Source: an uncultured bacterium (GTDB taxonomy: Bacteria > Hydrogenedentota > Hydrogenedentia > Hydrogenedentales > JAEUWI01). Taken from it: DNA of 41,179 bases. The stretch spans positions 1-41,179 of the forward strand of contig CAXBPH010000025.1 in the NCBI GenBank assembly GCA_963977445.1, given 5' to 3'. The notes under the pieces are model-generated. The model was not told the origin of the DNA and did not search any database. It saw only the letters and a list, made by a program, of their open reading frames with translations. Both the position numbers and the translations under genes were made by a program. This document shows, in pieces, positions 7,084 to 26,629 of this stretch (positions within the stretch are counted from its first letter, which is position 1; each line of letters starts with the position of its first letter).

Positions 7084-8169
7084 TTAGTCTGCGTCCAGCT
7101 CTTCGAAAACGGCTTTCATCAACAAGGGCAACACCACGGTAGCGTCCGCGTAGACCTCGGCATACTTTCCACCGTCTGCGGGGGGAACAAATTTGCCCCA
7201 ACTGACGCCTTCGGAATAGGTACACCCCGAAAGGCCACCCCAGTGGACGGGTTCCGGACAGATGCGGACACCATATTGAAATCGCGGGTTGGGCAATTCA
7301 ATACCGAGCCGTGCAGAGGTAATGTCGAAATAGGGTCCCACTTGCTGGGCCCAATTCCGGGGCACGCCACCGCCAATGGTGATAATGCCCAACTTTTCCG
7401 ACTTTCCGATCAGACGGGCATATTCCTGCATATCCAGAAAGGGATTGAAGGCCGGCACGGCCGTAAAGACTTCATCAGGCGTAAGGGGGCGCCCTTTTTC
7501 CGCCTGCATAGCCGCGACGGAGGCCGCCATGACGTGGGTGGAGAAATCCAGGCCCATTTCACTGTCGGTGAAGGCGGGAATGAAGACAGGCACCCGTTTG
7601 CACCAGGCGCTTCGTAAAATACCGGGCCCCTGATCCAATTGGTCGAGGCGCTCGCCGACGGCGCGGCAAAAACGGGAGGAACACCACACCCCATCATCGG
7701 GAACGGTGTTGGCGAGCACATCGGCCACCAACTCCGCTACGTCATTGAGATTGGATTCCATTTCCAGGGTGTCGTAGATCCGGTTGTAGCCCTTGGCGAA
7801 GAGCTCCGAATCGTCAGCAGCGGGGTCGACCGCATAATGCGTCAGGCCGATACTTTCGGTGACGCCATGGGCCACCAGGGCACCGGTGGCGACCACCGCA
7901 TCCACAAGGCCGCTATCTATCATCTGACAGATAATCTGACCCTGCTTGGCAACGGTCATGGCCCCGGACAGGGTAAGCACCGTCGTGCATCCCTGATCCC
8001 GGGCCATACTCAGAGTGACATCCAGCGCCTTGCCGAGCTGACGCCCGCCAAAGGCTGTACGCCCCATAGCGCGAACTAGCCCGGAGAAAGAGTCCAATTC
8101 GTTGAGATTAAGACTCTTAAGCGGCACGAGCCCGTCGGCCCGCCCATCGTGCATTTCGCGATCTGACAT
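7084..8169 (-). CDS. Deoxyhypusine synthase-like protein (bacterial DHS/homospermidine synthase-like)
   Basis: 'LTLSGAMT', 'VATGAL', 'GYNRIYD', 'PAFTDSEMG', 'IGGGVPRN', 'GGLSGCTYSEGVSWGK' (catalytic Lys retained) and 'EVYADAT'. Confidence 0.92.
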   Translation of the reverse strand: MSDREMHDGRADGLVPLKSLNLNELDSFSGLVRAMGRTAFGGRQLGKALDVTLSMARDQGCTTVLTLSGAMTVAKQGQIICQMIDSGLVDAVVATGALVAHGVTESIGLTHYAVDPAADDSELFAKGYNRIYDTLEMESNLNDVAELVADVLANTVPDDGVWCSSRFCRAVGERLDQLDQGPGILRSAWCKRVPVFIPAFTDSEMGLDFSTHVMAASVAAMQAEKGRPLTPDEVFTAVPAFNPFLDMQEYARLIGKSEKLGIITIGGGVPRNWAQQVGPYFDITSARLGIELPNPRFQYGVRICPEPVHWGGLSGCTYSEGVSWGKFVPPADGGKYAEVYADATVVLPLLMKAVFEELDAD

Positions 8170-8189
8170 ACTACAAACTCCTCCGTCCG

Positions 8190-8591
8190 CTATATGACGG
8201 CAAGTTCCGCCACCGCAGGCACCTGAAGAAAATCGTTTTCTTCCTCGGCAAAGCGGGGCATGGTGCGAATGAAGACATCACCAAGGTCCACCTCTTCACG
8301 AATACACTCCAAGACCTTAAGGGGGTCGGTGGAGCCACACGTAAAGACGTCCATGGCAATGAGGCCGTCATCCGCGTAGGTATGGGCAGAGCAGTGGCTC
8401 TCGTCCAAGAGTACTACGGCGGTAAATCCGGGGGGGGAGTTGTGTCCAAAGTGATAACGCACTTGCGAGATCACCGTCGCTCCGGCACGCTCTGCGCCTC
8501 GGGCCATAGCCCGCAGCACCAGCTTATCATCCAGACATACTTCGCGGGACACATTGTGACAGTCGATTAGTAGATGTTTGCCTCTGTGCAA
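8190..8591 (-). CDS. speD: Pyruvoyl-dependent S-adenosylmethionine decarboxylase family proenzyme (SpeD/SpeH-like); start revised to TTG at 8591 (133 aa)
   Basis: 'GKHLLID', 'GFTAVVLLDESHCSAHTY' (E-S self-cleavage site) and 'DVFTCG'. GAGGAGG at 8607-8601 lies 9 nt upstream of the TTG. Confidence 0.85.
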   Translation of the reverse strand: MHRGKHLLIDCHNVSREVCLDDKLVLRAMARGAERAGATVISQVRYHFGHNSPPGFTAVVLLDESHCSAHTYADDGLIAMDVFTCGSTDPLKVLECIREEVDLGDVFIRTMPRFAEEENDFLQVPAVAELAVI

Positions 8592-8704
8592 TTCATAAAA
8601 CCTCCTCTGAGTATACAAAGCAGTACACACCGCCTTACGCTCGATCTCCTTGCTCAAGGGAGGCTTGGGGACGGTAACCAAACCAAATTTTTTCGTGGAG
8701 ACAA

Positions 8705-9049: not shown

Positions 9050-11974
9050 CTACTGCGCTTCGGCGGGTGCGGGTTCGTTTGCGATGAGATCGCGCAACGA
9101 CTGGATGCCCATGGAGAGATTCTGTTCCTTAATGTGGTAGTTGTGACAAATGAGACAACTATCGCCGGCCTTGCCCTGAACGTGGCAACGCGCGCAATCA
9201 CCCTTGGCTACCGGCTCGAAATTACTGACGAAGGCATGTCCGCTGCTGCCGTGATTGGCATTGGAGAAGTTTACACCCAACTCGAGCCCTTCCGTGCTTG
9301 CCTTGAAACTGTCCAGGTACGCCATAGCCGGGGCTGCAGCGGACACTTCGGATTCGGGTGACGCTTCTTCCACCGCCGGGCTTTCTTCGGCTTCGCGCTC
9401 TGTTTCAGGAGCGACAGCGCCGTCGCCAGCCGTCGTCACTGCCTCTTCCTCGGCAGAAGCCGCCTTGGCCACCGTCATACGGGCTTGCACTGCCGGAACC
9501 CAAGGGGCACGGTGGCACTCTGCACAGTTCATCAACTTCAAGTGGGGTGTGTGATTAAACTTGGTGAAGTCCCGAATGGGTTGTTCGCTCTTCCAGTTTA
9601 CCTTTACGACGGGGTCACCGGCGGCATTTTTCTCTGCATCGATACTGTGGCACTTCATACAGGCACCAATGGCCGAGCCGGTCGCACGACCACTGAGTTC
9701 GTCAAATACCATCGCCGCAGCCGGACTCTTGGCATACAGGGAGGCTGAAAAATCGAGCCAGGCGGTTATGAAGGGATCCGCGTGCTTAATGGGTCGATAG
9801 TACATGGAGCGAGGCTCACGGAGGGCCCAGGTCTCTCCTGAGACCGTCGCGGTGCCTTCCAGCCATTTTTTAAAGTCTCTGAAATCGCCAAACCATGCGA
9901 CGAAAGCTTCACCAACTTCGTGTATGGCCGAATCCGGGTCTACCTCAGCAGGGACGGCTTTGTCCGGTGCGGCATCTGCCGCCCCGTCGGAATTCTCTTC
10001 CGGGGTATCCTTCGCCGCGGCCTCATCATCCCCTTCTGCGGGTTCCTCTGCACTTTCTGTAGCGGATGCCGCCGAAGCGCCCACCATTCCGGTAATCAAG
10101 CCCTTCCACTCTTTATTTTTCACGCCCTTGCCGGACGATACGAGAATCCAGTCTTCTCCTTCGACCTTAAACTGCGTGTCGAACCATTCGCGGAAGGCCT
10201 CGTAATCGCTGAAGAGCGACAAAACCTTCTCGTAGGCTCCGGCACCGTCTTCCGCTGCGGCATCACGCAATGCGCGGTAGGGGGCGACAGTATCAATGGC
10301 CGACAACCAGCCCGCCGGGTCGAGTCTAAATTCACTCTCCCGCACGTGCCACCCTGACATTTCGATAATGTCTTTCCGGGAAATGTCTTCCACAACTTTC
10401 TCGACGGTGCTCCCCAATTCGGGATAGCCAAACAAGGCGTCCAGTTCGCCTGATGAGATGGGTCCACCTTTGACCCGCTCAAGCTGTTCCTGAATGACCT
10501 GGCGCAGTCCCCCCTGGTCCTCGTTCATGGCGTCACCCTGCAGAAACTTCAGGCCTTCAAAGAGACGGCCGACAATTTCCGGGTCTTCGTCATAGGCGAT
10601 TCCGGAAAGGTCACCTTCGAACTCTTGCACCATGGCAAAATCTTCGGTGAACTGGGCCTGGCTCTTCGGGTCCTGGGCATTATAGCCCGCGAGGAGCAAC
10701 ATCATGATGGGTGAAATCTTCTTACTGGCCGTCCGGGGAATGGCCGACAACTCGAGCTCGTCTTCCAGAATCTCATAGACATCGGACTCAACGGACGGAA
10801 AACCGAAAACAGGGATCCATTCATCTCGGGCGGAAACAATGCTACCGTTATGACACGCCGAGCACATCTCCTCGAAGGCTTTCAGGCGGGTCGTGAAGGT
10901 CTCCCCCGCAATCTCGTGACAGGAGGTGCAATCGGCGGGTGCATGGGCGCTGAAGCCGTCTTTTTGAAAATAGTTGGTTTCGTGACGCTCGTGATCGAAA
11001 ACGATCCGCGTCCGTCGGCGATAAGGGTAGTCATACCCCGCCTTGGAGGCGAGAGTCGCGAACTCGGGGTGCCCTTGGTTGATACTCTTGAATTGCTTCA
11101 CATGGCATACCTGACAATTCTCGTTTTCCATGCGTTTTATGTCGAAAAAGGCACCGTTGTGCTCATGGTGACAGGTCGCACAGGCGAGTTGGCTACTGTC
11201 GCCCAATTTAACACCCGGTGTAAATGACGCCAACATCAATGACAGGGGTTTCGACGCGCTGAATGGATCCGCCTGGGCCTCTGCGGTGTGGGTCGCCATT
11301 ACATCAGCACTGAGCGCGTGGGGCGAAAGACCACTGTTACCCACGTCGTCCTGGTGGCAAACCAGACACTGAGCGCTCTGTGTAACGGACGAATTGCCCT
11401 TGACCGCGGCACTCAGCAGACCTTCGAGGCCTCCTTCTACACTGGTGTGGCAAATATGACAACTTTCACCCTCAATTCCCGTACTCGCGCTGGAATCCAG
11501 CTTGCCATGGGTCATTTCTTCCAGGGACGCCATCGATGCGCCCTGGTGACTCACAGTGAGGGGGCCTGGGGACAGGAATTGGGTACGCCAGGCACCACCA
11601 AGGGCCGTCAGCGCGCCGCCAACGAGGATTAGGCAGATGACGATACTTACCCGGCCACGAAGATTGCGGAGACTGCGCTGTGGCGAACAGTGTACTTTCT
11701 TACAACATTCACCCACGCCATCGCGTACGGCCGGACCAAAAGCGGGCTCTTCCAGTGCGGGACTGTCGCAGGGGCCGCCGTACTGTTCAGGACGGGTGCA
11801 GACCCAGCGATCATTCAGTTTCGCGGGAACGCACTCATAATGGACCGCGCATTTACCCCGGCGGGAAGGCCCATGGGGGCAGGGCTTGCCTTCGGCCGAT
11901 AGACCACATACCCAGTTTTCATTGGGTCGGTTATACGGGCGCTTGTAAATTTCCTTATCGTGCGAATCAGCCAT
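9050..11974 (-). CDS. Membrane-anchored decaheme cytochrome c (cytochrome c3-like modules) with a Cys-rich N-terminus; 974 aa
   Basis: Ten CxxCH motifs (CHICH, CLVCH, CATCH, CQVCH, CTSCH, CSACH, CMKCH, CAECH, CARCH, CLICH), c3-type FDHERH/FNHTPH distal-His motifs and one TM helix. The ATG at 11974 overlaps the upstream TAA (TAATG). Confidence 0.9.
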   Translation of the reverse strand: MADSHDKEIYKRPYNRPNENWVCGLSAEGKPCPHGPSRRGKCAVHYECVPAKLNDRWVCTRPEQYGGPCDSPALEEPAFGPAVRDGVGECCKKVHCSPQRSLRNLRGRVSIVICLILVGGALTALGGAWRTQFLSPGPLTVSHQGASMASLEEMTHGKLDSSASTGIEGESCHICHTSVEGGLEGLLSAAVKGNSSVTQSAQCLVCHQDDVGNSGLSPHALSADVMATHTAEAQADPFSASKPLSLMLASFTPGVKLGDSSQLACATCHHEHNGAFFDIKRMENENCQVCHVKQFKSINQGHPEFATLASKAGYDYPYRRRTRIVFDHERHETNYFQKDGFSAHAPADCTSCHEIAGETFTTRLKAFEEMCSACHNGSIVSARDEWIPVFGFPSVESDVYEILEDELELSAIPRTASKKISPIMMLLLAGYNAQDPKSQAQFTEDFAMVQEFEGDLSGIAYDEDPEIVGRLFEGLKFLQGDAMNEDQGGLRQVIQEQLERVKGGPISSGELDALFGYPELGSTVEKVVEDISRKDIIEMSGWHVRESEFRLDPAGWLSAIDTVAPYRALRDAAAEDGAGAYEKVLSLFSDYEAFREWFDTQFKVEGEDWILVSSGKGVKNKEWKGLITGMVGASAASATESAEEPAEGDDEAAAKDTPEENSDGAADAAPDKAVPAEVDPDSAIHEVGEAFVAWFGDFRDFKKWLEGTATVSGETWALREPRSMYYRPIKHADPFITAWLDFSASLYAKSPAAAMVFDELSGRATGSAIGACMKCHSIDAEKNAAGDPVVKVNWKSEQPIRDFTKFNHTPHLKLMNCAECHRAPWVPAVQARMTVAKAASAEEEAVTTAGDGAVAPETEREAEESPAVEEASPESEVSAAAPAMAYLDSFKASTEGLELGVNFSNANHGSSGHAFVSNFEPVAKGDCARCHVQGKAGDSCLICHNYHIKEQNLSMGIQSLRDLIANEPAPAEAQ

Positions 11975-12798
11975 TAGAGCACTCTTCCGGAAAATGCATG
12001 GGTCATCCACACGTGAAAGATTATCAAGACGAACAACCCACTGGTAAGCGGAATATGAAGAAAGAGCCAGGTCTTCAGCGCGAACTGCAGGGCATATTGA
12101 TAATCCAGCCCGTTCTTTTTCCGCACATAGACTGCGATTTTCTCCAGGATCTTCTTTTCGTCATCATTGAGATAGCGATATTGGTCTTCGATCTCAACAA
12201 GTATCCGATTCAGCGGCGGTGCCACTTCGAAGATATGATGAAACATATAGCGCGGGCCGTCGAAGAAACTTCGAAGACGTTCTGTGTAAAACGTCGATAT
12301 TGTGGACGACTGGGTCTCCACTATCGATTCTTCCGCCAGGCGGTCGACCGCTTCCCTGATCATCTTACGATGCTCTGGAAGACGTTCGAAGACGACCTCT
12401 TCCCCATTGGCCGTAAGTCGTCGGGGGAACACACGGGTCATCACCAGTCCCACGACGCCGCTTATGAGAACGGCAAAGTAGAACAACGCCAGGAGCTGGT
12501 CGAAAAATCCCGTTGGTACTTTCAGCCCAACGTGAAAAAGATAGGGCACTATGGTAAAGGCACCGCCATAAATGTGCACCTGCAACCAGAGGCGAGAGGG
12601 ACCCAAGGGGGGGACGGGGAATTTCTTACGCACGTTAAAGAGCGCAAGAAAGGTCATCACGGCGAGAAAAATCCACCCCGAGAGCATATGGGGATTGCGC
12701 AGTGTAACGCGAAATCCTTCAATGAAAATGAGGAAAATTATCGTGACTGCGCCAAGTATGACCAGTGCGTTCAGTCGTCTCCGGGTATAGTATCTCAC
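11974..12798 (-). CDS. Integral membrane protein, ferric-reductase/cytochrome b-like (putative di-heme)
   Basis: About 5 TM helices. Two H-x13-H pairs sit in TM helices (WLQVH-IYGGAFTIVPYLF-H; WLFLH-IPLTSGLFVLIIF-H). GTGA overlap with the upstream gene. Confidence 0.75.
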   Translation of the reverse strand: MRYYTRRRLNALVILGAVTIIFLIFIEGFRVTLRNPHMLSGWIFLAVMTFLALFNVRKKFPVPPLGPSRLWLQVHIYGGAFTIVPYLFHVGLKVPTGFFDQLLALFYFAVLISGVVGLVMTRVFPRRLTANGEEVVFERLPEHRKMIREAVDRLAEESIVETQSSTISTFYTERLRSFFDGPRYMFHHIFEVAPPLNRILVEIEDQYRYLNDDEKKILEKIAVYVRKKNGLDYQYALQFALKTWLFLHIPLTSGLFVLIIFHVWMTHAFSGRVL

Positions 12799-14603
12799 CG
12801 TTTAATAAACCTGGCTAGTGAATCCACGTCTTGCATGTTAACGCGCTGAAGGGCATCGTGGGGACAGGCCCGCACGCAGGCAGGACCACCCGTCTGGTCA
12901 ACGCATAGATCACACTTGGTTGCTTTGTAAATGGGTGAACCAGCGGACTCTCCCGAGCTGGCTATCCGAAAGGCCCCGCGACTGTTACGGACAGTAATCA
13001 TCCGTATAGAATCGTAGGGACAATTGCTATAACAGGTTGCACACCCGATACAGGCGTCTTCATTGATAACGACCTGACCTTCAAGGCTTTCCCGTGAAAT
13101 GGCTCCGGTAGGACAGCCAATCATACAAACGGGATCGACGCAATGCATGCAGGCGTTTGCCACCATTACGTTGCCGTGGACGGGCCCGTGGCGCACAAAT
13201 CGCGGATTGCCGTCATGGGCAGACGCGCAACCACGCACGCAGTCATCACATCGCGTGCACCGGTCAAGATTGATCAGCATGGTCTTCGTGCCGTTCAAGA
13301 ATCGGTTTTCGGCGAAGAACTCAAACAGCTCGGCGCCGACATCGTCGCGAAGGGTATTGGCCGTATCGGTCTTACCCGCCTTAATATCTTTACTTCGATA
13401 TCGCGGAAAATTCGGTTGCTCTTTCAAGAGCGTGGGCAAGATATATTTTTCCACCAAGTGGGTGGGAATTGTCAGGATATGGGCATAGCCAATGGCCCGC
13501 AGGCTATGTTGAAAAGGGATAGGGCTGTTGGGGTGCTGCCAGTTATACAGGGCCTCTTTCAGCCCAAAAACCTGGCCACCGCCAAGGTAATTTAATGTCT
13601 GGTGTCCGTGACCATAGCGTTTACTCTCTCGTGCGAAACCCGCGCGAACAACGTGTATGCCATTCGGGTAATCCCCCTCCTCCGCAATCATCTCTTCCTG
13701 ATCAATTACTCGGGTCTTCTCGTCCTGGGACAAACCAATATATTCGGAGGACCATTCGTCATATTTGCCGTAGGTGCTGAATTTTACCTGCGACAACACC
13801 TCTTCCGGCAAGGACTTAAAGAGCGATATGGATTCCAGCGTTCCTTTGAGCGAACGCTTGCGATACATCTCGTCAATATGATGTTCGATACCTTCGTCGG
13901 CTTCCATAAGATCACGGAGGCCTTGCCAACGCAATTCAAGCACACGCGTCGGCTCTGCTGCGACGATAGATATTTCGCGGGGCATGCGGTAGATGGCCCC
14001 AATCTCGCCGAAGAATGATCCGGGCATCATGGGGGCTGTCTGGTACTTATTCGGGTCCAGAATATCGGCCAGTTGTTGCGGGCTAACCCCCGTACCCTTT
14101 TCCTCATCTTTTCGGGACTTGACGTTGGCCGTACGATATTCAGTGGCACGGGGCATGAGCATGTCACGCACGCGGGAAATGAGGGATCCCACAAAACCGA
14201 TGCTGCGCCGCTCACGGTGTCCGAGGAGACCCGAAGGTAATTCTGGTTGAATAACGGCGCGGAGCTCCCCTTCAAGAATAAAGAAGGCGGAGTTTCCGTA
14301 GTCATCTTTGCGAATTACAAAATCACCCGCGTCATAGGAACGAATTCGGGCGTCGTTCATCAGAATGCCGTAGATGGATACAGGCACGCCAAAGGAAACG
14401 AACTGGGGTTTCTTCGCCGCTTCAAGGGTATCGCAGATTGACCGAAAGGGATTCATCTGGAGCACGTCCAGCAGATCCATTTCCGTCATTTTCCCATAGG
14501 GCTTTGCCCAACGGGTTAACCGCTTCTCCCCTTCATCAGCGGTTGCGGATGGTGCACCCAGTGCACCATCCGCGCGCTCTATTTCTTGCTGAACAATAGC
14601 CAA
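12795..14603 (-). CDS. Cyclic-nucleotide-binding domain + 4Fe-4S ferredoxin (DmsB/NrfC-like) fusion protein
   Basis: Two cNMP domains ('GSFFGEIGAIYRMPREISIVA' canonical; second degenerate). The C-terminus carries CTRCDDCVRGC, CMHCVDPVCMIGCP, CIGCATCYSNCP and CDLC...ACVRACP. Confidence 0.9.
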   Translation of the reverse strand: MAIVQQEIERADGALGAPSATADEGEKRLTRWAKPYGKMTEMDLLDVLQMNPFRSICDTLEAAKKPQFVSFGVPVSIYGILMNDARIRSYDAGDFVIRKDDYGNSAFFILEGELRAVIQPELPSGLLGHRERRSIGFVGSLISRVRDMLMPRATEYRTANVKSRKDEEKGTGVSPQQLADILDPNKYQTAPMMPGSFFGEIGAIYRMPREISIVAAEPTRVLELRWQGLRDLMEADEGIEHHIDEMYRKRSLKGTLESISLFKSLPEEVLSQVKFSTYGKYDEWSSEYIGLSQDEKTRVIDQEEMIAEEGDYPNGIHVVRAGFARESKRYGHGHQTLNYLGGGQVFGLKEALYNWQHPNSPIPFQHSLRAIGYAHILTIPTHLVEKYILPTLLKEQPNFPRYRSKDIKAGKTDTANTLRDDVGAELFEFFAENRFLNGTKTMLINLDRCTRCDDCVRGCASAHDGNPRFVRHGPVHGNVMVANACMHCVDPVCMIGCPTGAISRESLEGQVVINEDACIGCATCYSNCPYDSIRMITVRNSRGAFRIASSGESAGSPIYKATKCDLCVDQTGGPACVRACPHDALQRVNMQDVDSLARFIKR

Positions 14604-14619
14604 CGTGATCTTTCAGGGT

Positions 14620-15657
14620 TTATTCGTAAACTTCGCCATGATAAGAAGTAGGCACTTTGGAAGCGGCTGCACTGAGTGCGGTGCCGAATTTACCCTTATC
14701 AGATTCTATGGTCTTGGCTACCTTGCGAATGCCATCGGCCGCGCCGACATATTCGGCTTTGTTACCCGTGGCCACTTTGACTTTACCGCCATCCAAGGGC
14801 ACCTGGGAAAGGACGCTGTCCATACCACCAAGGCCTTTCAGGGCGTCGTAGGCATTCTGCGCGCGTTCGCCCATGGCTGTAAGATAGGTGCCTTCTGTCG
14901 TAGCGGAAGCCAGGCCACGAAGCGCGAACTCCAGGTCCAGGGTCTTGCCGACTACGTAGAAGATTTGCTTCTCCTCTGCGGTGGAGTCGTTATTGGTGCC
15001 CTGCTCGGCGCGGGCTTTGGGATCGTCGTTCAGGAAATTATGGCGTACTTCGCCGTGGCTCCATGCTACGAGCTCAAAATCACTACCGGCGGGATGCTGG
15101 CCCTTGTTGACCAGGTCTTCCTTGGGTACTGTGTGACACTGGAAGCAATTCATGGCCAAGGTGTAGATATCGTCCGTGAGACGCATACCGAGGCTCTCGG
15201 CTTTCGCCAGGCGGGCAGCCCGGTCGGGCATCCCTTCCGTGTCCTGGTGCACGTCGAGCCAATCCACAGCACCGCCATGGCACCGTTGGCAGGAAACGCC
15301 CATAACGGTCTTGGGACGTCCACCGGCTTCTTTGGCAGTCTGGGTGTAGTGGCACTGTACGCATTCGTCGTTCCGGCGAATACTACCCGAGTCACCCAGA
15401 CGCTCAAGAATGGCCTTGGCTTCATCGCGCAGGTGCAATTCGTCGAAGGTCTTCTTGTGTGTCGACTGTTCCCAAGCGAGAACCGCGTTTTCGTGGCACT
15501 GCTCGCACTTTCCTTTTTCGTCTTCAATAATTTTGTGAGGCTCATAGGTCAGAACATCAGCGGCATAGGCCGTTGTTCCATGAAGCGCAACGCTCCCAAG
15601 GCAGACCATTGCACTACCCGTTGCAAGTTGTCGAAAATGCTTCCAATTAACTATCAT
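14620..15657 (-). CDS. Periplasmic tetraheme cytochrome c (c554-like)
   Basis: Four CxxCH motifs (CEQCH, CVQCH, CQRCH, CFQCH); signal peptide (AYA-A); GGGAG Shine-Dalgarno before the ATG at 15657. Confidence 0.88.
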   Translation of the reverse strand: MIVNWKHFRQLATGSAMVCLGSVALHGTTAYAADVLTYEPHKIIEDEKGKCEQCHENAVLAWEQSTHKKTFDELHLRDEAKAILERLGDSGSIRRNDECVQCHYTQTAKEAGGRPKTVMGVSCQRCHGGAVDWLDVHQDTEGMPDRAARLAKAESLGMRLTDDIYTLAMNCFQCHTVPKEDLVNKGQHPAGSDFELVAWSHGEVRHNFLNDDPKARAEQGTNNDSTAEEKQIFYVVGKTLDLEFALRGLASATTEGTYLTAMGERAQNAYDALKGLGGMDSVLSQVPLDGGKVKVATGNKAEYVGAADGIRKVAKTIESDKGKFGTALSAAASKVPTSYHGEVYE

Positions 15658-15703
15658 GATTTCACTCCCGTTAGAACGACACACTGTTCAAAAATACGCG
15701 ACA

Positions 15704-16999
15704 TTACGCGTCCAACTCGATCGCTGACTTTGGTGTGGCAATACAGGGTAGGCAATAGCCCTCCTGCAGGCCAGGAAACGCCGGTTGAACGTCGATGTAC
15801 GCAACCTCACCACTCTTCAGGGCCGTGTGACAACACCCACACTTTCCCTGACCACACGCATACTTAATCTTCTTTTCTTTAAATCGGCTTGTCTTGGCAG
15901 CGGCCCGTATACTTTTTTCGCCCTGCCAATTAATCGTTTTTCCTGAGGCGCCATAGGAGATGGTAAGTGCCTGACCCGTAGCAACTGCCGGTGCGGGTGC
16001 GGCACTCTCTCCGAAGGCTTCCCAGTTAATCTTATCTTTCGGTACGCCCCAAGCCTGCAGATCCCGTTCCAGATTTTTCATCATAATTTCGGGACCACAG
16101 GTGTAGTAGGCGTAATTATTCCCGGGCATAACTGATTTTAACATATCAATGTCTACCCGGCCGGATTTGTAAATAATGCCACTGTCGGCCACCGTGCCAT
16201 CTTCGATTCCCTTGGGCATTTCACCGCTGAAACAGAGGTAGACATGGGCATTCTTCAAATGACTCGCGGCATACTCGAAGTTGGGCACCATGACGAGGTC
16301 ATCTGGATTCCGCACGCCGAAAAATATCCAAACTTCCCGGCTGCTCTTCCGATCAATGAGGCTATTGCACATGGACAAAATAGGCGTTACGCCTACACCA
16401 CCGGCCATGAGTGCTACCGGGCTTTCGTGCGACGGATCGAGGAAGAAATCCCCGCTTGGCGCCTGCACATCAATCAGATCACCTTCCTGAATATGGTCGT
16501 GGAGGAAGTTCGACACAAGGCCCGGCGGCATTTCAGGGTTCTTGGGCGGCGGCGGAACTTTCCGCACGCTGATCCGGTAGTAACGCTGATTGGGGCTGTC
16601 CGATAAAGAATAGCACCGGGTCTCTTCAAGGGTCTCCCCCGGATTTTCTGGATCGGGAAGATCCAAGCGAAACATGAGAAATTGCCCGGGGCTGAAGGAG
16701 GGCAGTTTGCGACGATCATGGGGATAGAAGTAAAAGGAACAAATGTCGCCCGCTTTATTTTCTACAATTTTCTTGCGGACTTCAAACTTACGCCATCCAG
16801 ACCAGGAAAGTTTATTGGAGACGGTTCGCTCCAACTGCGCCTCGGCCGTCTGAATACGGATTTGCCACTCTTTGTAATCCTGTCGACGTTTGAGTTGCTG
16901 CGCCCGTGAACGCTGAAGCGTACCATAGACCAAAACCGGCACCTGAAGCACAAGCGTAGCTACAACGATAAGGCCTAGAGCCAGTGCGACGAGTTCCAC
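15704..16999 (-). CDS. N-terminally membrane-anchored FAD/NAD(P)H-binding oxidoreductase with a C-terminal [2Fe-2S] ferredoxin (FNR family, PaaE/Hcr-like)
   Basis: 'RCYSLS', 'GLVSNFLH', 'AGGVGVTPILSM', 'YTCGPEIMM', 'WEAFG' and 'CGQGKCGCC...CLPC'; AGGAGG Shine-Dalgarno with GTG start. Confidence 0.9.
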   Translation of the reverse strand: MELVALALGLIVVATLVLQVPVLVYGTLQRSRAQQLKRRQDYKEWQIRIQTAEAQLERTVSNKLSWSGWRKFEVRKKIVENKAGDICSFYFYPHDRRKLPSFSPGQFLMFRLDLPDPENPGETLEETRCYSLSDSPNQRYYRISVRKVPPPPKNPEMPPGLVSNFLHDHIQEGDLIDVQAPSGDFFLDPSHESPVALMAGGVGVTPILSMCNSLIDRKSSREVWIFFGVRNPDDLVMVPNFEYAASHLKNAHVYLCFSGEMPKGIEDGTVADSGIIYKSGRVDIDMLKSVMPGNNYAYYTCGPEIMMKNLERDLQAWGVPKDKINWEAFGESAAPAPAVATGQALTISYGASGKTINWQGEKSIRAAAKTSRFKEKKIKYACGQGKCGCCHTALKSGEVAYIDVQPAFPGLQEGYCLPCIATPKSAIELDA

Positions 17000-17044
17000 G
17001 CCAAACCTCCTACATTCCTGGTTTTCCGCTGCGCATCAGCGAGA

Positions 17045-18910
17045 CTAGAATTGGACAACAAACTCGGTGCGAATACCTTTTTTCTCGTCCAGCGCTTCTC
17101 GCTGCACGTAGTAGGCATCAACACTCCAGACGTAGCGGGTCTTAAAAGCCTGCTGATAGCGGGCCATTATACCGAGACGTCCGCGATCGGAACCGTCAAA
17201 GTCGGTACGACCGCCCAATTCGAGAATGACTTGCTTACGCTGCTCATCAAAGAATTTCTGATAGCCAATCGCACCACCGGCACTGTCGTGATCCGTCGTG
17301 TTCTCGATAGGCGAACCAACAAAACCAATTCCCGGTGACGCGAAAAGAATACCAACCCGGCCCAATGGACCGCCAGTGGAAGGATCACGGGCTACCGATT
17401 GATAATGGTCATTGGCAACGAACAAGGTCGAGTAGACCAGATCGTAGCCATAGGGAGGTGTCCAGGATGCTTCCGCAAGGAACACCTGGCCAGAATCGGA
17501 GTGGATGGTATCGGCGCTGCTCGTGCGCTCGGAAATGTTGAAACGAAACGCCGTGTTGATGTGGCCAATTCTCTGAACGAAACTCAAGCCAACGTTGACC
17601 TGGTCACCACCTTCTCTCAGGATGGCGCCGTTGTTCAGATAGCGGGTGGTTACGTCGTCGTTGATGTACGCGAGATCAAGGTCTACCGTGGTCTTCGGAA
17701 AGTCGATGCTGTTGAACAGGGCAAAGAGGTGGGCACTATCACGCTTACGATTGTTCACACCCACACCGCGATGCAATTCGTCCCAACCCCAGACAAAGGT
17801 ACTCCGGATATTGGCAGCTGCACCGATAAGTAGATTGTTGCGCGTGATACCCAAGGCATCCACGTTATCGCTGATCATAATTCCTTCTTGGAAGAAGAAC
17901 GGCTGGCGCCCTACTGAGAAACCGAAATCGACGACGCCCGTGTCATTTTTATCCAATCCTGGAAATAATTCGCCAAAGTCACCTTCAAAGAAAAGCTGAT
18001 CAACGTCTGCATCTCCACGGAGATACCAGTCTTCTTTGTTGACGATATTGGGTGTTTGCCAACGGTAGCCGTTGAAGTTACCGTTGTGGTCGAAGGGACG
18101 GAGACCAAGCACAAGACGCTCGGTTGGCGTCAACGCCAGATTGAAAAAGAGATCCAGTCGGGTGACCAGCTCTTCAACCTTTGCTTCACCACGTTGGATA
18201 GGCGGACCAGCAACATCGGTAATCGGAGGCAAGCGGTTGCCGGTCGCTTCATACTGCCATGCCGTGCGCAAGGTACCAAAGACGAAGAGAGATGGCTGCC
18301 AAACGGCACCGGTGGGGATCTTAAACCCCTCCTGCAAGTTGCCATGATTCAAAAAGTCATCACCAAAAATCCGAAGGGTCCGAGGACGCTTCGGAAAGGG
18401 ACGCACCTGGCTCTCGAGTATTTCATCGGGAAAAGATAGGCGCAGCAGCTCACGATTCCGAGCGGTTGCGTCCACCGGGCCAAGTCCTTCGAGGCCCGAT
18501 TCCAACTCCGCTTTGAGCTCTTCGGGAAGCTCAACGCTGGAAAAGGATGCACTATCGTAGAAGGTGGGGTAGCGAAGTACGGCGTTGAGGCCATTGATCA
18601 TGCGGTATTTGACCACACGCTCAAGCTCGCCACCACCCTCGATGGAAAGAAACTCTTCACGCAAATCCGGACTGAGAAACTGCCAGACGCGCCCGGCCGG
18701 CGACTCGGCATTTTCCGCGCCCGCCTTGAGCTTCATCAACAGGGCTTCGTAGTCCTGGATATCCTCGACGGCGAACAGCGCATAGGCTTCTGTCTGCAAC
18801 GGAATTGGCTTTTGTGAAAGCTTGCTCTCCGATGCCGCGTGGCTGTAAGGGCAAAAGGCTATTGCCGCGCCCATCGCAAGCATAAGTATCTGTATACGAC
18901 ACATGGTCAT
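17045..18910 (-). CDS. Putative outer-membrane beta-barrel protein with an N-terminal helical domain
   Basis: Signal peptide (SHA-A), alternating amphipathic beta-strands in the C-terminal two thirds, and a terminal 'GIRTEFVVQF' BAM-type signature; GAGGGAG Shine-Dalgarno. Confidence 0.75.
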   Translation of the reverse strand: MTMCRIQILMLAMGAAIAFCPYSHAASESKLSQKPIPLQTEAYALFAVEDIQDYEALLMKLKAGAENAESPAGRVWQFLSPDLREEFLSIEGGGELERVVKYRMINGLNAVLRYPTFYDSASFSSVELPEELKAELESGLEGLGPVDATARNRELLRLSFPDEILESQVRPFPKRPRTLRIFGDDFLNHGNLQEGFKIPTGAVWQPSLFVFGTLRTAWQYEATGNRLPPITDVAGPPIQRGEAKVEELVTRLDLFFNLALTPTERLVLGLRPFDHNGNFNGYRWQTPNIVNKEDWYLRGDADVDQLFFEGDFGELFPGLDKNDTGVVDFGFSVGRQPFFFQEGIMISDNVDALGITRNNLLIGAAANIRSTFVWGWDELHRGVGVNNRKRDSAHLFALFNSIDFPKTTVDLDLAYINDDVTTRYLNNGAILREGGDQVNVGLSFVQRIGHINTAFRFNISERTSSADTIHSDSGQVFLAEASWTPPYGYDLVYSTLFVANDHYQSVARDPSTGGPLGRVGILFASPGIGFVGSPIENTTDHDSAGGAIGYQKFFDEQRKQVILELGGRTDFDGSDRGRLGIMARYQQAFKTRYVWSVDAYYVQREALDEKKGIRTEFVVQF

Positions 18911-18997
18911 TGACTCCCTCCGCTGCATTCTGCTGCCACGCGACACCGTTTCCTGGGTTGGGAATAGTTCGCGACCAACAACACAACAGGCTTGGTG

Positions 18998-20971
18998 TTA
19001 CTCCACAACGATCTCAAAGTCCTGCTCCGCAATCAGTGAATGACCACCTGTTACGCCGAACAAATCCTTAAGTTCCTCTTCCCGATGTTCCTCAACCAGA
19101 GTATCCACGTGCTCCCGGGTGAGCCGGTTACCCTCTGCATCTAACACGTCGCCTACGCCAAAACGCACTCCCAATGCGATTTGGTGCGCACTCATGCCGT
19201 AGTCAAAGCCTACATCCTTTATCTCGTCTACAAGATTGATAGGTACCATGCCGGCAATGAGTTTAGCTTTGACGGTATAGATGCCCGGACCCGTCAACTT
19301 CTTTTTACCAATCTTATACTTGGCCCGGCGCGTGTCCAGGGGCGTGATGTTTTTCTTGTGAATCCGCGCGCCAGCAGGGCGACCCGTCAAGGTGGCCGAA
19401 AAACGGGAAGGACGAATGAAGGGCAGTGGGCTCGGCGAGAAATTGATGGCCAAGACCTGTTCGCGGTCGGTCCCGCGATTGTTGCGGGTGATAAAACTCG
19501 ACTGAAGGGTGAAGAGTTGCTGGTCCAGGGAGAGCTCGCGGTTATGCACGAACAGGGAGTGGAGGTCACGAACGTCGAAATTCGGATCCAGGTCACCGGA
19601 GACAAAAACCGTCTCCCCTGCTTCATTCAAAACTTCAACCTGCAGGAACACGACACGTTCCGCGATAAAGCCCGTGGGCACACTGTGTCCGTCGGTCAGA
19701 TTCTTCACGTCGATTTCGAATTCAATGCCTTTTTTGGTGGACGCTTTCGTTATCTCGTATTCGCCGATGCCGTAGCCGGCTTGCAATACGGCCAGGCGCT
19801 CTTGCTGATACTCTTCCAGCAAGGCCAGCTGGTCGGCGATTAAGTCGCGGGCTTCGTAGCGCTCGTCGATGTTTTCCCAACGGGCGGGAAAGGCCGTGCC
19901 CTTACCGGCGTCCTGACGGGCGGGCTCGTCTTCTTCTTCAAATTGATCGGTGCCCCAGCCTGCCTGATAGTCGAAGGTCAACCATTCGCGAATCGTTGCA
20001 AATTCTGCAGCGTCGTCATTGTGGGGGTAAATACCGGGGTGAATAACGGAATGGTCGGGACCAGCGAAACGGTGGTTTGTTTTCTTTCGCTCTTCACCAA
20101 CCCACTTGGCACCAATCTTAGCAATCTGCTTCTTGTCGTAGTTGGTTTCTTTGTCGCCAGAGAAAACACCAGGCGTGTTACCCATGTGACAGTCACTACA
20201 GGTCACCCCGTTGCGGGACGCGGGACTTTGCTTGTACTCACTGAAGGCTTCCTCAAGGCGAAAACCGTTCAGTAGATTCACGTCGTGGCAGACACCGCAG
20301 AATGAAGATTCCTGTAACTGGTAGAAAGGCAGGGTCTCCCCGTGCACTTTCCCTTCGCCAAATTTGTTTGTAATCTCAGCACCGAAGGTCTCGGGGAACT
20401 CAGGGTTTCCCTTCGGCCCATAAATAGGTTGGTCCAACTCACCATCCTGAAGGGCGATACGTCCGCTGATTTTTCCGTATGTCTTGTTGATCCGGTGGCA
20501 AACCACGCAAGTCACGCCTTCACGAGAGGTGGGACTACGGTCAATATTGCTCATGAAAATATCTTCGGAAAGATTCATGCCCACGGGGGTATGACAACGG
20601 ATACAAAAGTCGCCATTGGTCCCGTTGGTAAGCTTCAGTATCTTCGCATGCATCGCGTTAAATACAGGGCTCATTTGTGCATACGCGTGGGGAGAAACAG
20701 ACCACTCGCGATAGTGGTCCGGGTGGCACTGCTTGCACTCGCTGGCGGAAGGATAGTAAGGCTTACCTTCTCCGTCTTTATAGATGGCTACGTGTACGTT
20801 TTCATCCGCGACGGCCTCATCCGCAACTACCTCCTCCGCAGGTGCCTCAGCGGCATCGTCCGCTGCGACGGCAATACCGCCCAGCCAAAATCCGCCCAAT
20901 ACTGTAAGTGCGGCGATGGCTTTGGTACCCGGCAACCACGTGTTGAACTGAAACAAGAAGTGCGTTTTCAT
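18998..20971 (-). CDS. Exported pentaheme cytochrome c with a C-terminal beta-sandwich region
   Basis: Five CxxCH motifs (CKQCH, CIRCH, CVVCH, CGVCH, CSDCH), 'NHRFAG', 'NLTDGHSVPTG'; signal peptide (AVA-A). Confidence 0.88.
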   Translation of the reverse strand: MKTHFLFQFNTWLPGTKAIAALTVLGGFWLGGIAVAADDAAEAPAEEVVADEAVADENVHVAIYKDGEGKPYYPSASECKQCHPDHYREWSVSPHAYAQMSPVFNAMHAKILKLTNGTNGDFCIRCHTPVGMNLSEDIFMSNIDRSPTSREGVTCVVCHRINKTYGKISGRIALQDGELDQPIYGPKGNPEFPETFGAEITNKFGEGKVHGETLPFYQLQESSFCGVCHDVNLLNGFRLEEAFSEYKQSPASRNGVTCSDCHMGNTPGVFSGDKETNYDKKQIAKIGAKWVGEERKKTNHRFAGPDHSVIHPGIYPHNDDAAEFATIREWLTFDYQAGWGTDQFEEEDEPARQDAGKGTAFPARWENIDERYEARDLIADQLALLEEYQQERLAVLQAGYGIGEYEITKASTKKGIEFEIDVKNLTDGHSVPTGFIAERVVFLQVEVLNEAGETVFVSGDLDPNFDVRDLHSLFVHNRELSLDQQLFTLQSSFITRNNRGTDREQVLAINFSPSPLPFIRPSRFSATLTGRPAGARIHKKNITPLDTRRAKYKIGKKKLTGPGIYTVKAKLIAGMVPINLVDEIKDVGFDYGMSAHQIALGVRFGVGDVLDAEGNRLTREHVDTLVEEHREEELKDLFGVTGGHSLIAEQDFEIVVE

Positions 20972-21290
20972 AACTGTCTCCCGAAACTTTCCGAGCACCC
21001 TGGGAACGCTCTTTTTTGGTTCTTTAGAACGCTATACGAACGACCCGACGTTTGTTTTGCGGGCCTTAAACCAGGCCACGTTACGCTCAACCCGCCCACC
21101 GACGACGTGATTTTGCATAGTCCGATTTTTCGAACTGTCCAGCGCATTTACCTGAACTGTTGCAGTCGAAAGCTCGGTCACGCCCTCAGAAAAACTTTTA
21201 TTCCTGACACTTCAGAAATTCGCGTTCCATGAGTTCCACACACACCAGGAACCTGGATCACATCAGGAAACATCCCCTGGTCAGTCTGCA

Positions 21291-21668: not shown

Positions 21669-22355
21669 TTATTGACTGGATTGTGCAAGCCAATAAAAAA
21701 CCGCCCCCACCCCTGCCCCAACCACGAGGAGACTGAGGGCAAACACCAACGCCACATTCCCACCCCGATGGCTGAGTAGCTCTTCCTCGGGCAACGCCGT
21801 ATCATCCGCTTCCTTACCAAAATCACCGTGACAGCGGGCGCATCGCTTACTGAAAATGTCGTTATTCTCCCCGCAATTTGGACATACCACGACCGTATCG
21901 TTCCCGTGGCTGCTCATTTCCTGCATGGTGCCGGCCACCATCGTGGAGGCCATGGTTCCCATCGCCATACCCAGCCGTTCGAGCGCCTCGGTAGAGGATT
22001 TGGTGGGCTTAATCTCTGATACACGCGTCCAAGCGTCTATCGCCTTGTCCGTATTACCCGCCCCTTCGTATACCTTCGCAAGCTGTTCCAATAAGGAATA
22101 CTCCTGCGGGTGATCCTTAAGCGCTTTCAGCAATTCGGTCTCCGCCTCGGCATATTTCCCCAGGCGGTAGTAGGTTGCTGCAAGGTAGCGCAATACAGGT
22201 ACCTGATCGGGCCATACGTCGCGAAGCAACAAGAGATGCTCCAAAGCGGAACGATAGTCCCACGCGGTGTAGAGCTTCTTTGCCAGGCGCCAGCGCTGCT
22301 TGTGATCGTCGGGATGCGTATCAACATACGCACGAATTTCTTCTACATCCGCCAT
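21669..22355 (-). CDS. TPR-repeat protein with a zinc ribbon and C-terminal TM anchor
   Basis: TPR-like helices ('LAATYYRLGKYAEAE', 'LAKVYEGAGNTDKAI'), CPNC...CARC, and a C-terminal hydrophobic helix. Confidence 0.8.
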   Translation of the reverse strand: MADVEEIRAYVDTHPDDHKQRWRLAKKLYTAWDYRSALEHLLLLRDVWPDQVPVLRYLAATYYRLGKYAEAETELLKALKDHPQEYSLLEQLAKVYEGAGNTDKAIDAWTRVSEIKPTKSSTEALERLGMAMGTMASTMVAGTMQEMSSHGNDTVVVCPNCGENNDIFSKRCARCHGDFGKEADDTALPEEELLSHRGGNVALVFALSLLVVGAGVGAVFYWLAQSSQ

Positions 22356-22481
22356 AGTGTGTCCAAACGGTGCCTTTGTCGCCCCCAATGTCAATGACTC
22401 GGGGATCTTCCAATAGATGCCAATATCAGCCGGGACACCCCTCCGCAGTTAGCGTCATGGGGTCCAAACGTGCTCAGCGTT

Positions 22482-23256: not shown

Positions 23257-24522
23257 TTAGCTATTGAGGCGATAGGCCACTGTACCTTTAGGATTGTCGT
23301 ACCAACCGGGGTCAGAATAATCGTCGGCACCCAGCTTATCCCGAACCTTTAGAACGGTAAACATTCCGCCCATTTCGAGCGGACCAAAGGGACCCTCACC
23401 CATCATCATGGGCAGGGTATTTTCCGGGAGGGGCATATGTTTGGCGTGCTCCGCATGCTCGGCCATGCCATCTTCACCCATGGCCATGTAGTCGGGCAGT
23501 AGTTTCCATATCTTTTCTTTGATCCCGTCCTGATTTACCCCCATGGTGTTGGGAATTTCGTGTCCCATGGCATTCATCGAATGGTGCGACTTGTGGCAAT
23601 GAAAGGCCCAGTCGCCAGGCACGTTCGCGATAAATTCGATTTCCCGCGTGCTCCCCACTGGAACGGGCACGGTGGTTTGGGGCCACTGACCTGACGTTGG
23701 AATTTTCCCGCCGTCGGTGCCGGTAACCTTGAAGGAATAACCGTGCAGGTGAATGGGATGCTGGTTCATACTCAGATTGCCGAAACGTACCCGCACCCGA
23801 TCCCCTGTCTTGGCGACAAACGGTTTAATCGCCGGAAATATGGTGCTGTTGAAGGTGAACATATTGAAATCCAGCATGACCGATGGGTCAGGTCGATAGG
23901 TACCCGGTTCGATGGCCCATTCGTGCAACATAACGGCATAGTCTCGGTCTATTTGCTCCGGCTCGCCGTCTTTGGGGTGAACAATAAACATGCCCATCAT
24001 CCCCACCGCCATCTGGACCATTTCGTCCGCATGGGGGTGATACATAAAGGTGCCATGTTGCCGCAAGGTAAATTCATAGACGTAGGTCTCCCCTGGCTTG
24101 ATATGGGGCTGACTAAGTCCCCCAACGCCATCCATCCCACTCGGCAGGAACAGGCCGTGCCAATGGATTGTCGTGTGTTCCGGGAGCTTGTTGGTTACGA
24201 GGAAACGGACGCGGTCCCCTTCCACGGCTTCGATGGTCGGCCCGGGGGTTAGGCCGTTGTACCCCCAGCATTTCACTTTCATCCCCGGTGCGAATTCCCG
24301 AACGATGGGTTCGGCGGTCAAATGAAACACTTTGACGCCCTTGTCCATGGTCCACGGGAGAGTCGCCCCGTTGAGGGTTGTCGTTGGAGGGTAGCTCCCC
24401 CCCCGCTTCGCTTCTTTCGCGGGAGCATCCTCCTGCGCAGTGGCGTCGCGAAAGGGCAGCAGGGCCAAACCGCTCGCGCTGAGGGCAGAAAATGATGAAA
24501 GCAGTTGACGTCGTGTAAACAT
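23257..24522 (-). CDS. Tat-exported two-domain multicopper oxidase
   Basis: 'TRRQLL' Tat signal, HWHG, MYHPH, HPIHLHG, HCHKSHHSM and a Met-rich tail; AGGAG Shine-Dalgarno before 24522. Confidence 0.92.
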   Translation of the reverse strand: MFTRRQLLSSFSALSASGLALLPFRDATAQEDAPAKEAKRGGSYPPTTTLNGATLPWTMDKGVKVFHLTAEPIVREFAPGMKVKCWGYNGLTPGPTIEAVEGDRVRFLVTNKLPEHTTIHWHGLFLPSGMDGVGGLSQPHIKPGETYVYEFTLRQHGTFMYHPHADEMVQMAVGMMGMFIVHPKDGEPEQIDRDYAVMLHEWAIEPGTYRPDPSVMLDFNMFTFNSTIFPAIKPFVAKTGDRVRVRFGNLSMNQHPIHLHGYSFKVTGTDGGKIPTSGQWPQTTVPVPVGSTREIEFIANVPGDWAFHCHKSHHSMNAMGHEIPNTMGVNQDGIKEKIWKLLPDYMAMGEDGMAEHAEHAKHMPLPENTLPMMMGEGPFGPLEMGGMFTVLKVRDKLGADDYSDPGWYDNPKGTVAYRLNS

Positions 24523-24532
24523 GAAAGCACTC

Positions 24533-26618: not shown

Positions 26619-26629
26619 CTAGATCTCTC

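Follow-up and report, generated by a model that had tools for sequence, protein, structure and literature searches.

The closest described system to the locus reported here is the ptdABCDEFG gene cluster, which was named in a preprint (bioRxiv 10.1101/2023.11.21.568154) stating that its function "remains completely unknown". According to the main-text passages of that preprint, the cluster encodes penta-, tetra- and decahaem cytochromes, occurs in marine or saline Alpha- and Gammaproteobacteria, Nitrospirales and Planctomycetes, and is transcribed in ocean oxygen-deficient zones; PtdE is given as having a pair of 4Fe-4S clusters. We found no other paper on the operon name or architecture, those returned for CNB-ferredoxin architectures being unrelated, and nothing on a cyclic nucleotide monophosphate (cNMP) control or function of Ptd, either in those main-text passages or in the literature searched. 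The passages concerned in two papers on porin-cytochromes of Verrucomicrobia (PMC5615132, PMC6344600) deal with another system, which has an eight-haem cytochrome, and say nothing of cyclic nucleotides. Here we describe a ptd cluster in a 41,179-nucleotide stretch of DNA from an uncultured bacterium of the phylum Hydrogenedentota (the window; GenBank assembly GCA_963977445.1, contig CAXBPH010000025.1, positions 1 to 41,179 of the forward strand), in which PtdE has two cyclic-nucleotide-binding (CNB) domains fused to a ferredoxin module predicted to hold four [4Fe-4S] clusters, and we consider whether PtdE could be an electron wire that is gated by a cyclic nucleotide.

The window genes lie in the order A-B-C-D-E-F-G on the minus strand (9050-20998), with five, four and ten haem motifs in PtdA, PtdD and PtdG respectively. 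Because this order and these haem counts match the preprint description, the open reading frame (ORF) under study is identified, from its gene context, as PtdE. The likeness to the preprint cluster, as its main text presents it, extends to the flanks of ptdE, where an FAD/NAD(P) oxidoreductase and the tetrahaem cytochrome lie to one side, opposite a membrane protein and the decahaem cytochrome, and to the joining of a cNMP-binding domain and 4Fe-4S motifs in one protein. It ends with the cluster number, as the window PtdE has four cysteine motifs comprising 16 invariant cysteines where the preprint counts two clusters, and with the hosts, as the window copy is Hydrogenedentota-like and most of the relatives that we found are from Verrucomicrobiota, in contrast to the proteobacterial, Nitrospirales and Planctomycetes hosts of the preprint. 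Synteny was assessed in the 80 best genome loci, which represent at least eight phyla by record title. All 80 contained a PtdE homologue (near full length in 69), while PtdF was present in 79, PtdG in 76, PtdC in 68, PtdD in 64, PtdB in 28 and PtdA in 27; no other window gene had homologues in more than one of the 80. Genes E, F and G were always consecutive and in that order, ptdC lay directly upstream of ptdE or with ptdD between them, and ptdA and ptdB were movable or absent.

The ptdE frame is open for 602 codons, and its stop overlaps the ptdF start as GTGA. The protein matched the Pfam family cNMP_binding in three stretches (E 4.5e-22, 78.3 bits, cut-off 27.5) and several Fer4 (4Fe-4S) families above their cut-offs, e.g. 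Fer4_11 with 39.3 bits against 26.2. Of its 17 cysteines, 16 fall in four motifs and the other is C57. The Pfam scan reported no helix-turn-helix family, a hydropathy scan gave no hydrophobic, transmembrane-like or signal segment, and no twin-arginine motif was visible in the translated N-terminus. An earlier note, made from the letters of this DNA alone, had read the gene as cNMP domains fused to a 16-Cys ferredoxin lacking both a signal peptide and a helix-turn-helix, and the Pfam matches, cysteine count and hydropathy agree with it. The public gene call (P0001) is 561 residues long and begins at M42, the stretch in question being window positions 14480-14603 (minus strand). Residues R28, R31 and W32, however, are at least 90% conserved in an alignment of 81 PtdE sequences, which is the basis of all PtdE conservation figures below, and the sole standard start upstream of their codons is the TTG at 14603. 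Since these conserved residues lie upstream of the 561-residue call, the TTG is the likelier start, and the public call probably begins too late.

Of the 8000 candidates scored in a word-indexed protein search with PtdE, 4612 had E <= 0.001, and an exhaustive search of representatives at 50% identity gave 5427 at E <= 0.001, 1395 at <= 1e-10 and 495 at <= 1e-30. The nearest relatives (up to 85% identity) were labelled Hydrogenedentota or Hydrogenedentes and the others were mostly from Verrucomicrobiota and Planctomycetota (41-48% identity), while homologues in alphaproteobacterial metagenome-assembled genomes with the complete A-G order (L042, L080) were 41-43% identical. The window's genome has a single PtdE copy, its other three matches being ferredoxin-only. 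The gene is thus a newly found member of the PtdE family, of Hydrogenedentota type.

The AlphaFold2 (AF2) model of PtdE had a mean predicted local distance difference test score (pLDDT) of 71.9 and a predicted template modelling score (pTM) of 0.72, with confident CNB domains. The top Foldseek matches of the model were the tandem CNB-A/CNB-B domains of PKA regulatory (R) subunits and PKG (E 1.5e-15 to 1e-10, 11-16% identity). In common with these proteins PtdE has consecutive CNB domains joined by B/C helices and a phosphate-binding cassette that can be aligned with that of PKG; unlike them it has no kinase partner or inhibitor sequence, it has an Fe-S module as its output, about 70 residues are inserted in CNB-A, and CNB-B is degenerate. 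The CNB-A cassette (F198-G199-E200...R206-x-P208-R209...A215) aligned residue by residue with Plasmodium PKG cassettes. G199, E200, A203 and R206 were invariant, and F198, P208, R209 and A215 were at least 90% conserved; the pattern at E200 and R209 was repeated in a second set of 70 sequences taken from genome loci. The family consensus of the cassette is canonical (FGEIAALSRMPRTATIFA) and, as far as the alignments go, the cassette is as conserved throughout the family as the cluster cysteines, with one relative (P0017) having lost the cassette Arg. The claim that the first cNMP domain keeps its phosphate-binding cassette was therefore borne out, as G199, E200 and R209 are all present, and the loss of the Glu/Arg pair among syntenic homologues that would have spoken against cNMP control of electron flow was not seen. 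In the proposed reading the ligand of CNB-A is most likely a cyclic nucleotide produced by a class III cyclase. A separate feature of the cassette is R206 (window 13986-13988), three residues before the cassette Arg, which is invariant in the 81 sequences and is unlike the canonical cassettes aligned.

In CNB-B the corresponding sequence is F346-G347-L348-K349-E350, with L348 at the position of the Glu; the canonical site has no conserved Arg, and the likely Arg position is occupied by the variable H366. This is as the earlier note had read it, i.e. FGLKE without the Glu/Arg pair. CNB-B does have a conserved motif of its own, LRAIGY (L368, R369, G372, Y373): G347, E350, N354, G372 and Y373 were invariant, and W355, Q365, L368 and R369 were at least 90% conserved. 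When CNB-B alone was searched against PDB sequences only weak matches were returned (best E 0.088). This pattern of conservation indicates selection for a property different from canonical cNMP binding, and the degenerate domain probably serves as a relay or interface.

The ferredoxin module has four cysteine motifs (C449/452/455/459, C485/488/493/497, C518/521/524/528 and C564/567/576/580) and all 16 of these cysteines are invariant, therefore PtdE should hold four clusters and not two. Its closest solved relatives are HycB3 (E 4.6e-17) and HycB4 (E 6.1e-16) of the hydrogen-dependent CO2 reductase (PDB 7qv7). By its sequence the module is of the cytoplasmic HycB/HydN/AegA-N type, with which it shares the four motifs, the cytoplasmic location and, probably, a place as an electron wire between catalytic modules. 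It differs from the HycB type in the 440-residue CNB tandem added at the N-terminus, in having a membrane protein as partner rather than a hydrogenase or formate dehydrogenase, and in scoring far below the NCBIfam equivalog cut-offs.

The membrane partner, PtdF, has four histidines (H75, H89, H248, H262) that were invariant in 75 sequences, as they had been in an earlier set of 31. They form the pairs H75/H89 and H248/H262, each on one predicted transmembrane helix with a spacing of i, i+14, which presumably matches the spacing in NOX. The AF2 model of PtdF was confident (pLDDT 92.4, pTM 0.84), and there was no match to a Pfam (E <= 0.01) or NCBIfam family, including Ferric_reduct, nor a Foldseek match in the PDB at E <= 0.001. 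In the structural comparison by VIA the sensor four-helix bundles of TorS (Z 9.8) and McpS (Z 9.6) ranked first, and the di-haem b proteins CybB (Z 8.3), b561 (Z 7.7), STEAP4 (Z 7.6, root mean square deviation 3.6 over 149 aligned residues) and FdnI (Z 6.9) followed, as did STEAP1 (Z 7.3), with all scores below the level that the tool treats as meaningful for helical bundles, so that the di-haem likeness lies within noise. The four histidines most likely hold two putative haems b stacked across the membrane, an assignment drawn from these four residues only, and PtdF may be a new type of di-haem membrane cytochrome. By the positive-inside rule the cytoplasmic side would include the N-terminus, the loop at 58-67, the helical domain (about 125-235) and the beginning of the last helix. 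With this topology H75 and H248 would form a pair close to the cytoplasm, and H89 and H262 one close to the periplasm, as two stacked haems b would lead one to expect. The proposed likeness to NOX, FRE and STEAP is the path from NAD(P)H through flavin and two haems b, held by histidine pairs on two helices, to an acceptor outside. Ptd would differ from them in that the flavin module is a separate protein (PtdC) and a four-cluster wire and CNB sensor are interposed, and in that PtdF fails to match Ferric_reduct and resembles STEAP4 and STEAP1 only within helical-bundle noise.

We modeled the PtdE-PtdF complex from the PtdE alignment (A1) and the PtdF alignment (A2), in three runs with three controls. 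The interface score ipSAE was 0.68 (0.67, 0.68 and 0.70 in the runs) and the best of the three controls gave 0.00; among solved complexes 116 of 157 attained this mark, and among mismatched pairs 2 of 215. At least 94% of contacts were shared between runs, with partner pLDDT of at least 80. Because PtdF has no PDB match by Foldseek at the threshold above, a remembered complex of like kind is unlikely to explain the score. The modelled interface comprises PtdE residues 446-462, 470-480 and 570-584, which surround the cluster of C449/C452/C455/C580, together with the CNB-A insertion helix (137-148), and PtdF residues 2-4, 58-72, 120-137 and 238-242, i.e. the cytoplasmic ends of the histidine-bearing helices just below H75/H248. 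The PtdE C-terminus (598-602) meets the PtdF N-terminus (2-4), as fusions of the two proteins require. The model, which is not a measurement, supports docking of one terminal cluster of PtdE on the cytoplasmic face of PtdF.

Such fusions occur naturally. In P0163 (843 residues) a complete PtdF comes directly after PtdE (273 residues aligned at 36% identity, E 8e-56), further PtdE-PtdF fusions are P0179 and P0200/P0287, and in P0276/P0290 (859 residues) a 2Fe-2S/FAD/NAD reductase of the FNR type precedes PtdE. Each fused form was found on at least two contigs, and P0287 on ten. These proteins support the partner order C-E-F. Three other candidates (P0156, P0238, P0282) were left out, as they look like partial or chimeric gene calls. 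Five homologues of about 870-900 residues have an N-terminal extension of about 350 residues, for which no Pfam family was found in three of them, even at E 0.1.

The non-Ptd ORFs of the 80 loci were clustered, and a recurring neighbour was identified by Pfam as a class III adenylate/guanylate cyclase (PF00211). It lay within 8 kb of ptdE in 16 of the 80 loci, all 16 being confirmed by Pfam, and the N-terminal modules of the 16 were CHASE2 (7), another module of about 330 residues (5), FHA (2), 7TMR-DISM (1) and a truncated one (1). The seven CHASE2 cyclases are in Verrucomicrobiota, the five with the 330-residue module are in Pirellulales-type loci, where they are divergent from ptdC at 18-190 bp, and the 7TMR-DISM cyclase is in SAR324, directly upstream of ptdA. 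We calculated, for the 41 full-length loci, how many cyclase neighbours would be expected in a 17.7-kb window from the PF00211 count and size of each genome: 13 loci had such a neighbour against 0.87 expected, with a Poisson-binomial tail of 3e-13 that is too small because the test takes placement to be random and related genomes to be independent. The cyclases have at least four architectures, and these, together with the several arrangements, still argue for repeated association with ptd. Class III cyclases were present in 40 of the 41 PtdE-bearing genomes, and in three Planctomycetota genomes (L061, L064, L077) the sole PF00211 match adjoins ptd.

Other signalling domains were also found around ptd. 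Of 16 representatives of the PtdE homologues that were scanned, 5 had a fused FHA domain, as had nine clusters of proteins of about 1233 residues, and FHA domains around ptd occurred in P0143, P0139, P0147, P0144, P0190, P0122 and their relatives and at L061:14789-16621, L070:14667-16523 and L081:3034-4728; this recurrence hints at a second input dependent on Ser/Thr phosphorylation. The CNB and ferredoxin modules also occur in two long proteins (P0130, P0133), with a Ser/Thr kinase domain (1572 residues) or WD40 repeats (1192 residues).

From these results we propose the following mechanism. NAD(P)H would reduce the FAD and 2Fe-2S centre of PtdC at the inner face of the membrane, and the four [4Fe-4S] clusters of PtdE would carry the electrons from PtdC to the inner haem b of PtdF. 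They would then traverse the membrane, reach the outer haem and be handed on to the periplasmic cytochromes PtdG (decahaem) and PtdD (tetrahaem), continuing, where PtdA and PtdB are present, to the pentahaem/porin pair. The overall logic would be that of a NOX-like exporter, with NAD(P)H inside and the acceptor outside. For electrons from NAD(P)H the outward path runs downhill, and the membrane potential assists it. The CNB tandem would act as the switch: ligand binding by CNB-A would shift the B/C helices together with the insertion helix, which would change how PtdE docks on PtdF or else how PtdC gains access to the distal cluster, and so gate electron export. A fast switch would have a rationale, because export costs reductant and charge. 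PtdE would be wired like HycB, regulated like PKA-R and feed a NOX-like step, yet it is a strict member of none of these families.

We consider PtdE as a wire and cNMP-gated subunit to be the best explanation overall, with its chances about even. The parts of this reading differ in strength. The role of PtdE as a wire between PtdC and PtdF is likely, while gating by a cyclic nucleotide in the PtdE family falls a little short of an even chance. The fuller proposal, that a nucleotide bound at CNB-A and made by dedicated, often adjacent sensor cyclases couples or uncouples the PtdE wire from a di-haem PtdF, thereby switching NOX-like export to periplasmic and outer-membrane cytochromes, is possible but tentative, and gating in this Hydrogenedentota copy, with its altered cassette, is doubtful.

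Beyond the limits given above for the PtdF haems and structural scores, the complex model and the enrichment probability, several observations weigh against gating. The window cassette reads PREISIVA, with E210 and I211 where the family has Thr or Ser followed by Ala (PRTAT), i.e. R209-E210-I211 in place of the small or hydroxyl residues (R-[TSA]-A) expected after the Arg. We take these two residues to be ones that normally contact the phosphate in CNB domains. PRE[I/V/L]S replaces PRTAT in the window and about ten close relatives, a Hydrogenedentota subclade in which the binding or choice of ligand may, to judge from the residues replaced, be changed, weakened or lost. No cyclase was found in the window or in the three Hydrogenedentota loci, and none lay within 8 kb in 64 of the 80 loci, many of which are truncated. 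The one PF00211 match in the window's genome is an FHA-GAF-cyclase on another contig (C78); it is 23% identical to the FHA-cyclase beside ptd in L070, and orthology is not claimed. AF2 confidence is also low over ferredoxin residues 450-580 (pLDDT 42-61). The suggestion of the earlier note that cNMP controls electron flow thus gains from the conserved Glu/Arg pair and the cyclases enriched beside the cluster, and loses by the PREIS cassette and the lack of a cyclase in the window.

The same features bear on the alternative that PtdE is only a wire, in which the CNB tandem serves as a scaffold or docking element with no role for a ligand, or in which the subclade binds a nucleoside or other small molecule. 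The CNB-B domain without Glu and Arg, the Glu-Ile retained after the CNB-A Arg in the close relatives, the lack of a cyclase near the Hydrogenedentota clusters examined and the position of the CNB-A insertion helix at the modelled PtdF interface all fit this alternative, and nucleoside-binding PKA-R relatives were among the structural matches (6hyq, 6hyi, 6h4g). However, it does not predict the enrichment of cyclases in several phyla and architectures, and the CNB-A cassette is canonical family-wide and conserved to the same degree as the cluster ligands. We regard it as rather unlikely.

In a second alternative PtdE would be mainly a redox sensor, the state of the clusters altering the hold of the CNB domains on a nucleotide or partner and so reporting the redox state of Ptd without carrying the main flux. 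The homologues with FHA, Ser/Thr kinase or WD40 domains would suit such a role. Against this, the HycB-type four-cluster module is a wire in every solved relative found, PtdE is put in the electron path by its fusions with the NAD(P)H reductase and with the membrane protein, and the modelled docking sets a terminal cluster at PtdF. The sensor role is therefore improbable, and the related suggestion of the earlier note, that redox state might modulate signalling, gained no support.

The earlier note had also called the ferredoxin DmsB/NrfC-like; its 16 cysteines in four motifs stand, while 7qv7 and NCBIfam place the closest type with HycB/HydN. DmsB and NrfC are exported proteins that go with, or lie beside, catalytic subunits in the periplasm. 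An exported Fe-S subunit of this kind, in a periplasmic molybdoenzyme or nitrite reductase complex, would share the four-motif polyferredoxin fold class and cysteine pattern, and AegA, HydN and DmsB did rank first for PtdE in NCBIfam. All were far below their equivalog cut-offs, with 58.8 bits against 214.1 for DmsB (TIGR02951) and 41.7 bits against 377.6 for NrfC (TIGR03149). PtdE also has no signal, Tat motif or transmembrane segment, no molybdopterin or NrfD-type gene was found among the 27 window ORFs scanned, cNMP-binding domains act on cytoplasmic messengers, and the best relatives are the cytoplasmic HycB and HydN. We rejected this reading, which is very improbable, for its sub-cut-off scores and missing export signal and partner. 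A transcription factor of the CRP/FNR type carrying Fe-S clusters, which the combination of a cNMP domain and Fe-S superficially recalls, was likewise rejected as scarcely credible, since Pfam found no helix-turn-helix family, the tandem CNB resembles PKA-R/PKG and not CRP, and the C-terminal module is a four-cluster ferredoxin.

Table 1. The ptd cluster of the window and the parts of PtdE (window coordinates)
Feature	Position	Strand	Description	Basis
ptdG	9050..12010	-	decahaem cytochrome c with N-terminal 8-Cys domain and one transmembrane helix	10 CXXCH
ptdF	11974..12798	-	274-residue membrane protein, five predicted transmembrane helices, cytoplasmic helical domain, four invariant His	
ptdE	12795..14603	-	602-residue cytoplasmic protein, tandem cNMP-binding domains and 4x[4Fe-4S] ferredoxin	ORF, Pfam
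ferredoxin module of PtdE	12834..13283	-	residues ~441-590; four Cys motifs, four [4Fe-4S] clusters predicted	
CNB-B of PtdE	13419..13820	-	residues ~262-395; degenerate cassette FGLKE...LRAIGY	Pfam stretch 299-385
CNB-A of PtdE	13830..14486	-	residues ~40-258; ~70-residue insertion (~120-190) in the beta-barrel	AF2 secondary structure, pLDDT, Foldseek
CNB-A phosphate-binding cassette	13959..14012	-	residues 198-215, FGEIGAIYRMPREISIVA	conservation, PKG alignment
ptdD	14620..15684	-	periplasmic tetrahaem cytochrome c (c554-like)	4 CXXCH; Pfam Cytochrome_C554 54.3 bits
ptdC	15704..16999	-	membrane-anchored FNR-type NAD(P)H/FAD reductase with C-terminal 2Fe-2S; transmembrane-like 6-24	Pfam FAD_binding_6, NAD_binding_1, Fer2
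ptdB	17045..18946	-	633 residues, no Pfam family; putative porin	name from preprint
ptdA	18998..20998	-	pentahaem cytochrome c	5 CXXCH; Pfam Cytochrome_C554 40.3 bits

Some further features of the cluster and its surroundings were noted (coordinates of the cluster itself are in Table 1). The N-terminal residues 1-115 of PtdG (window 11666-12010, minus strand) form a Cys-rich domain that precedes a transmembrane-like helix at 121-139; its cysteines C35, C44, C54, C60, C71, C81, C102 and C108 are conserved in 27 of 28 homologues, and it has no Pfam match. From the topology this domain should be cytoplasmic, and it could therefore bind metal or an Fe-S cluster and make a further contact with PtdE; the preprint, in its main-text passages, treats PtdG as simply periplasmic. 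Directly after ptdG and on the same strand (7084-8681) are genes of the S-adenosylmethionine decarboxylase and deoxyhypusine-synthase families, a pair found after ptdG elsewhere only in the closest relative (L001). Upstream of ptdA (21669-22394, minus strand) is a gene for a TPR protein that has one CXXCH motif as well as a hydrophobic C-terminal segment, with a homologue in the same place in L003. Further upstream (23257-27385, minus strand) a multicopper oxidase, an outer-membrane efflux protein (OEP) and a DUF2231 membrane protein are encoded in a row, possibly as a copper-handling or metal-oxidation unit beside the Ptd cluster. In verrucomicrobial ptd loci, a protein of about 550 residues with an HbpS-like haem-degrading domain (PF03928) is present in 15 loci (e.g. 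L021:14178-15827) and an extra multihaem cytochrome without a Pfam family in 14 (e.g. L020:13455-14717).

Gene expression and the availability of substrate are usually regarded as what controls the export of electrons across the bacterial envelope. If PtdE is gated as proposed, a sensor inside the Fe-S wire would allow electron flow to be switched within seconds by a signalling pathway, and this would be the first direct, post-translational gating of transmembrane electron transfer by a cyclic nucleotide. Ptd is widespread, with the 495 clusters found at 50% identity and E <= 1e-30, and such gating would then be present in hundreds of lineages among the Verrucomicrobiota, Planctomycetota, Hydrogenedentota, Proteobacteria and others. 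Taken together, the C-E-F order of partners, the natural fusions, the modelled docking and the linkage to cyclases recast a system of "function unknown" as one whose proposed path can be tested by reconstitution.

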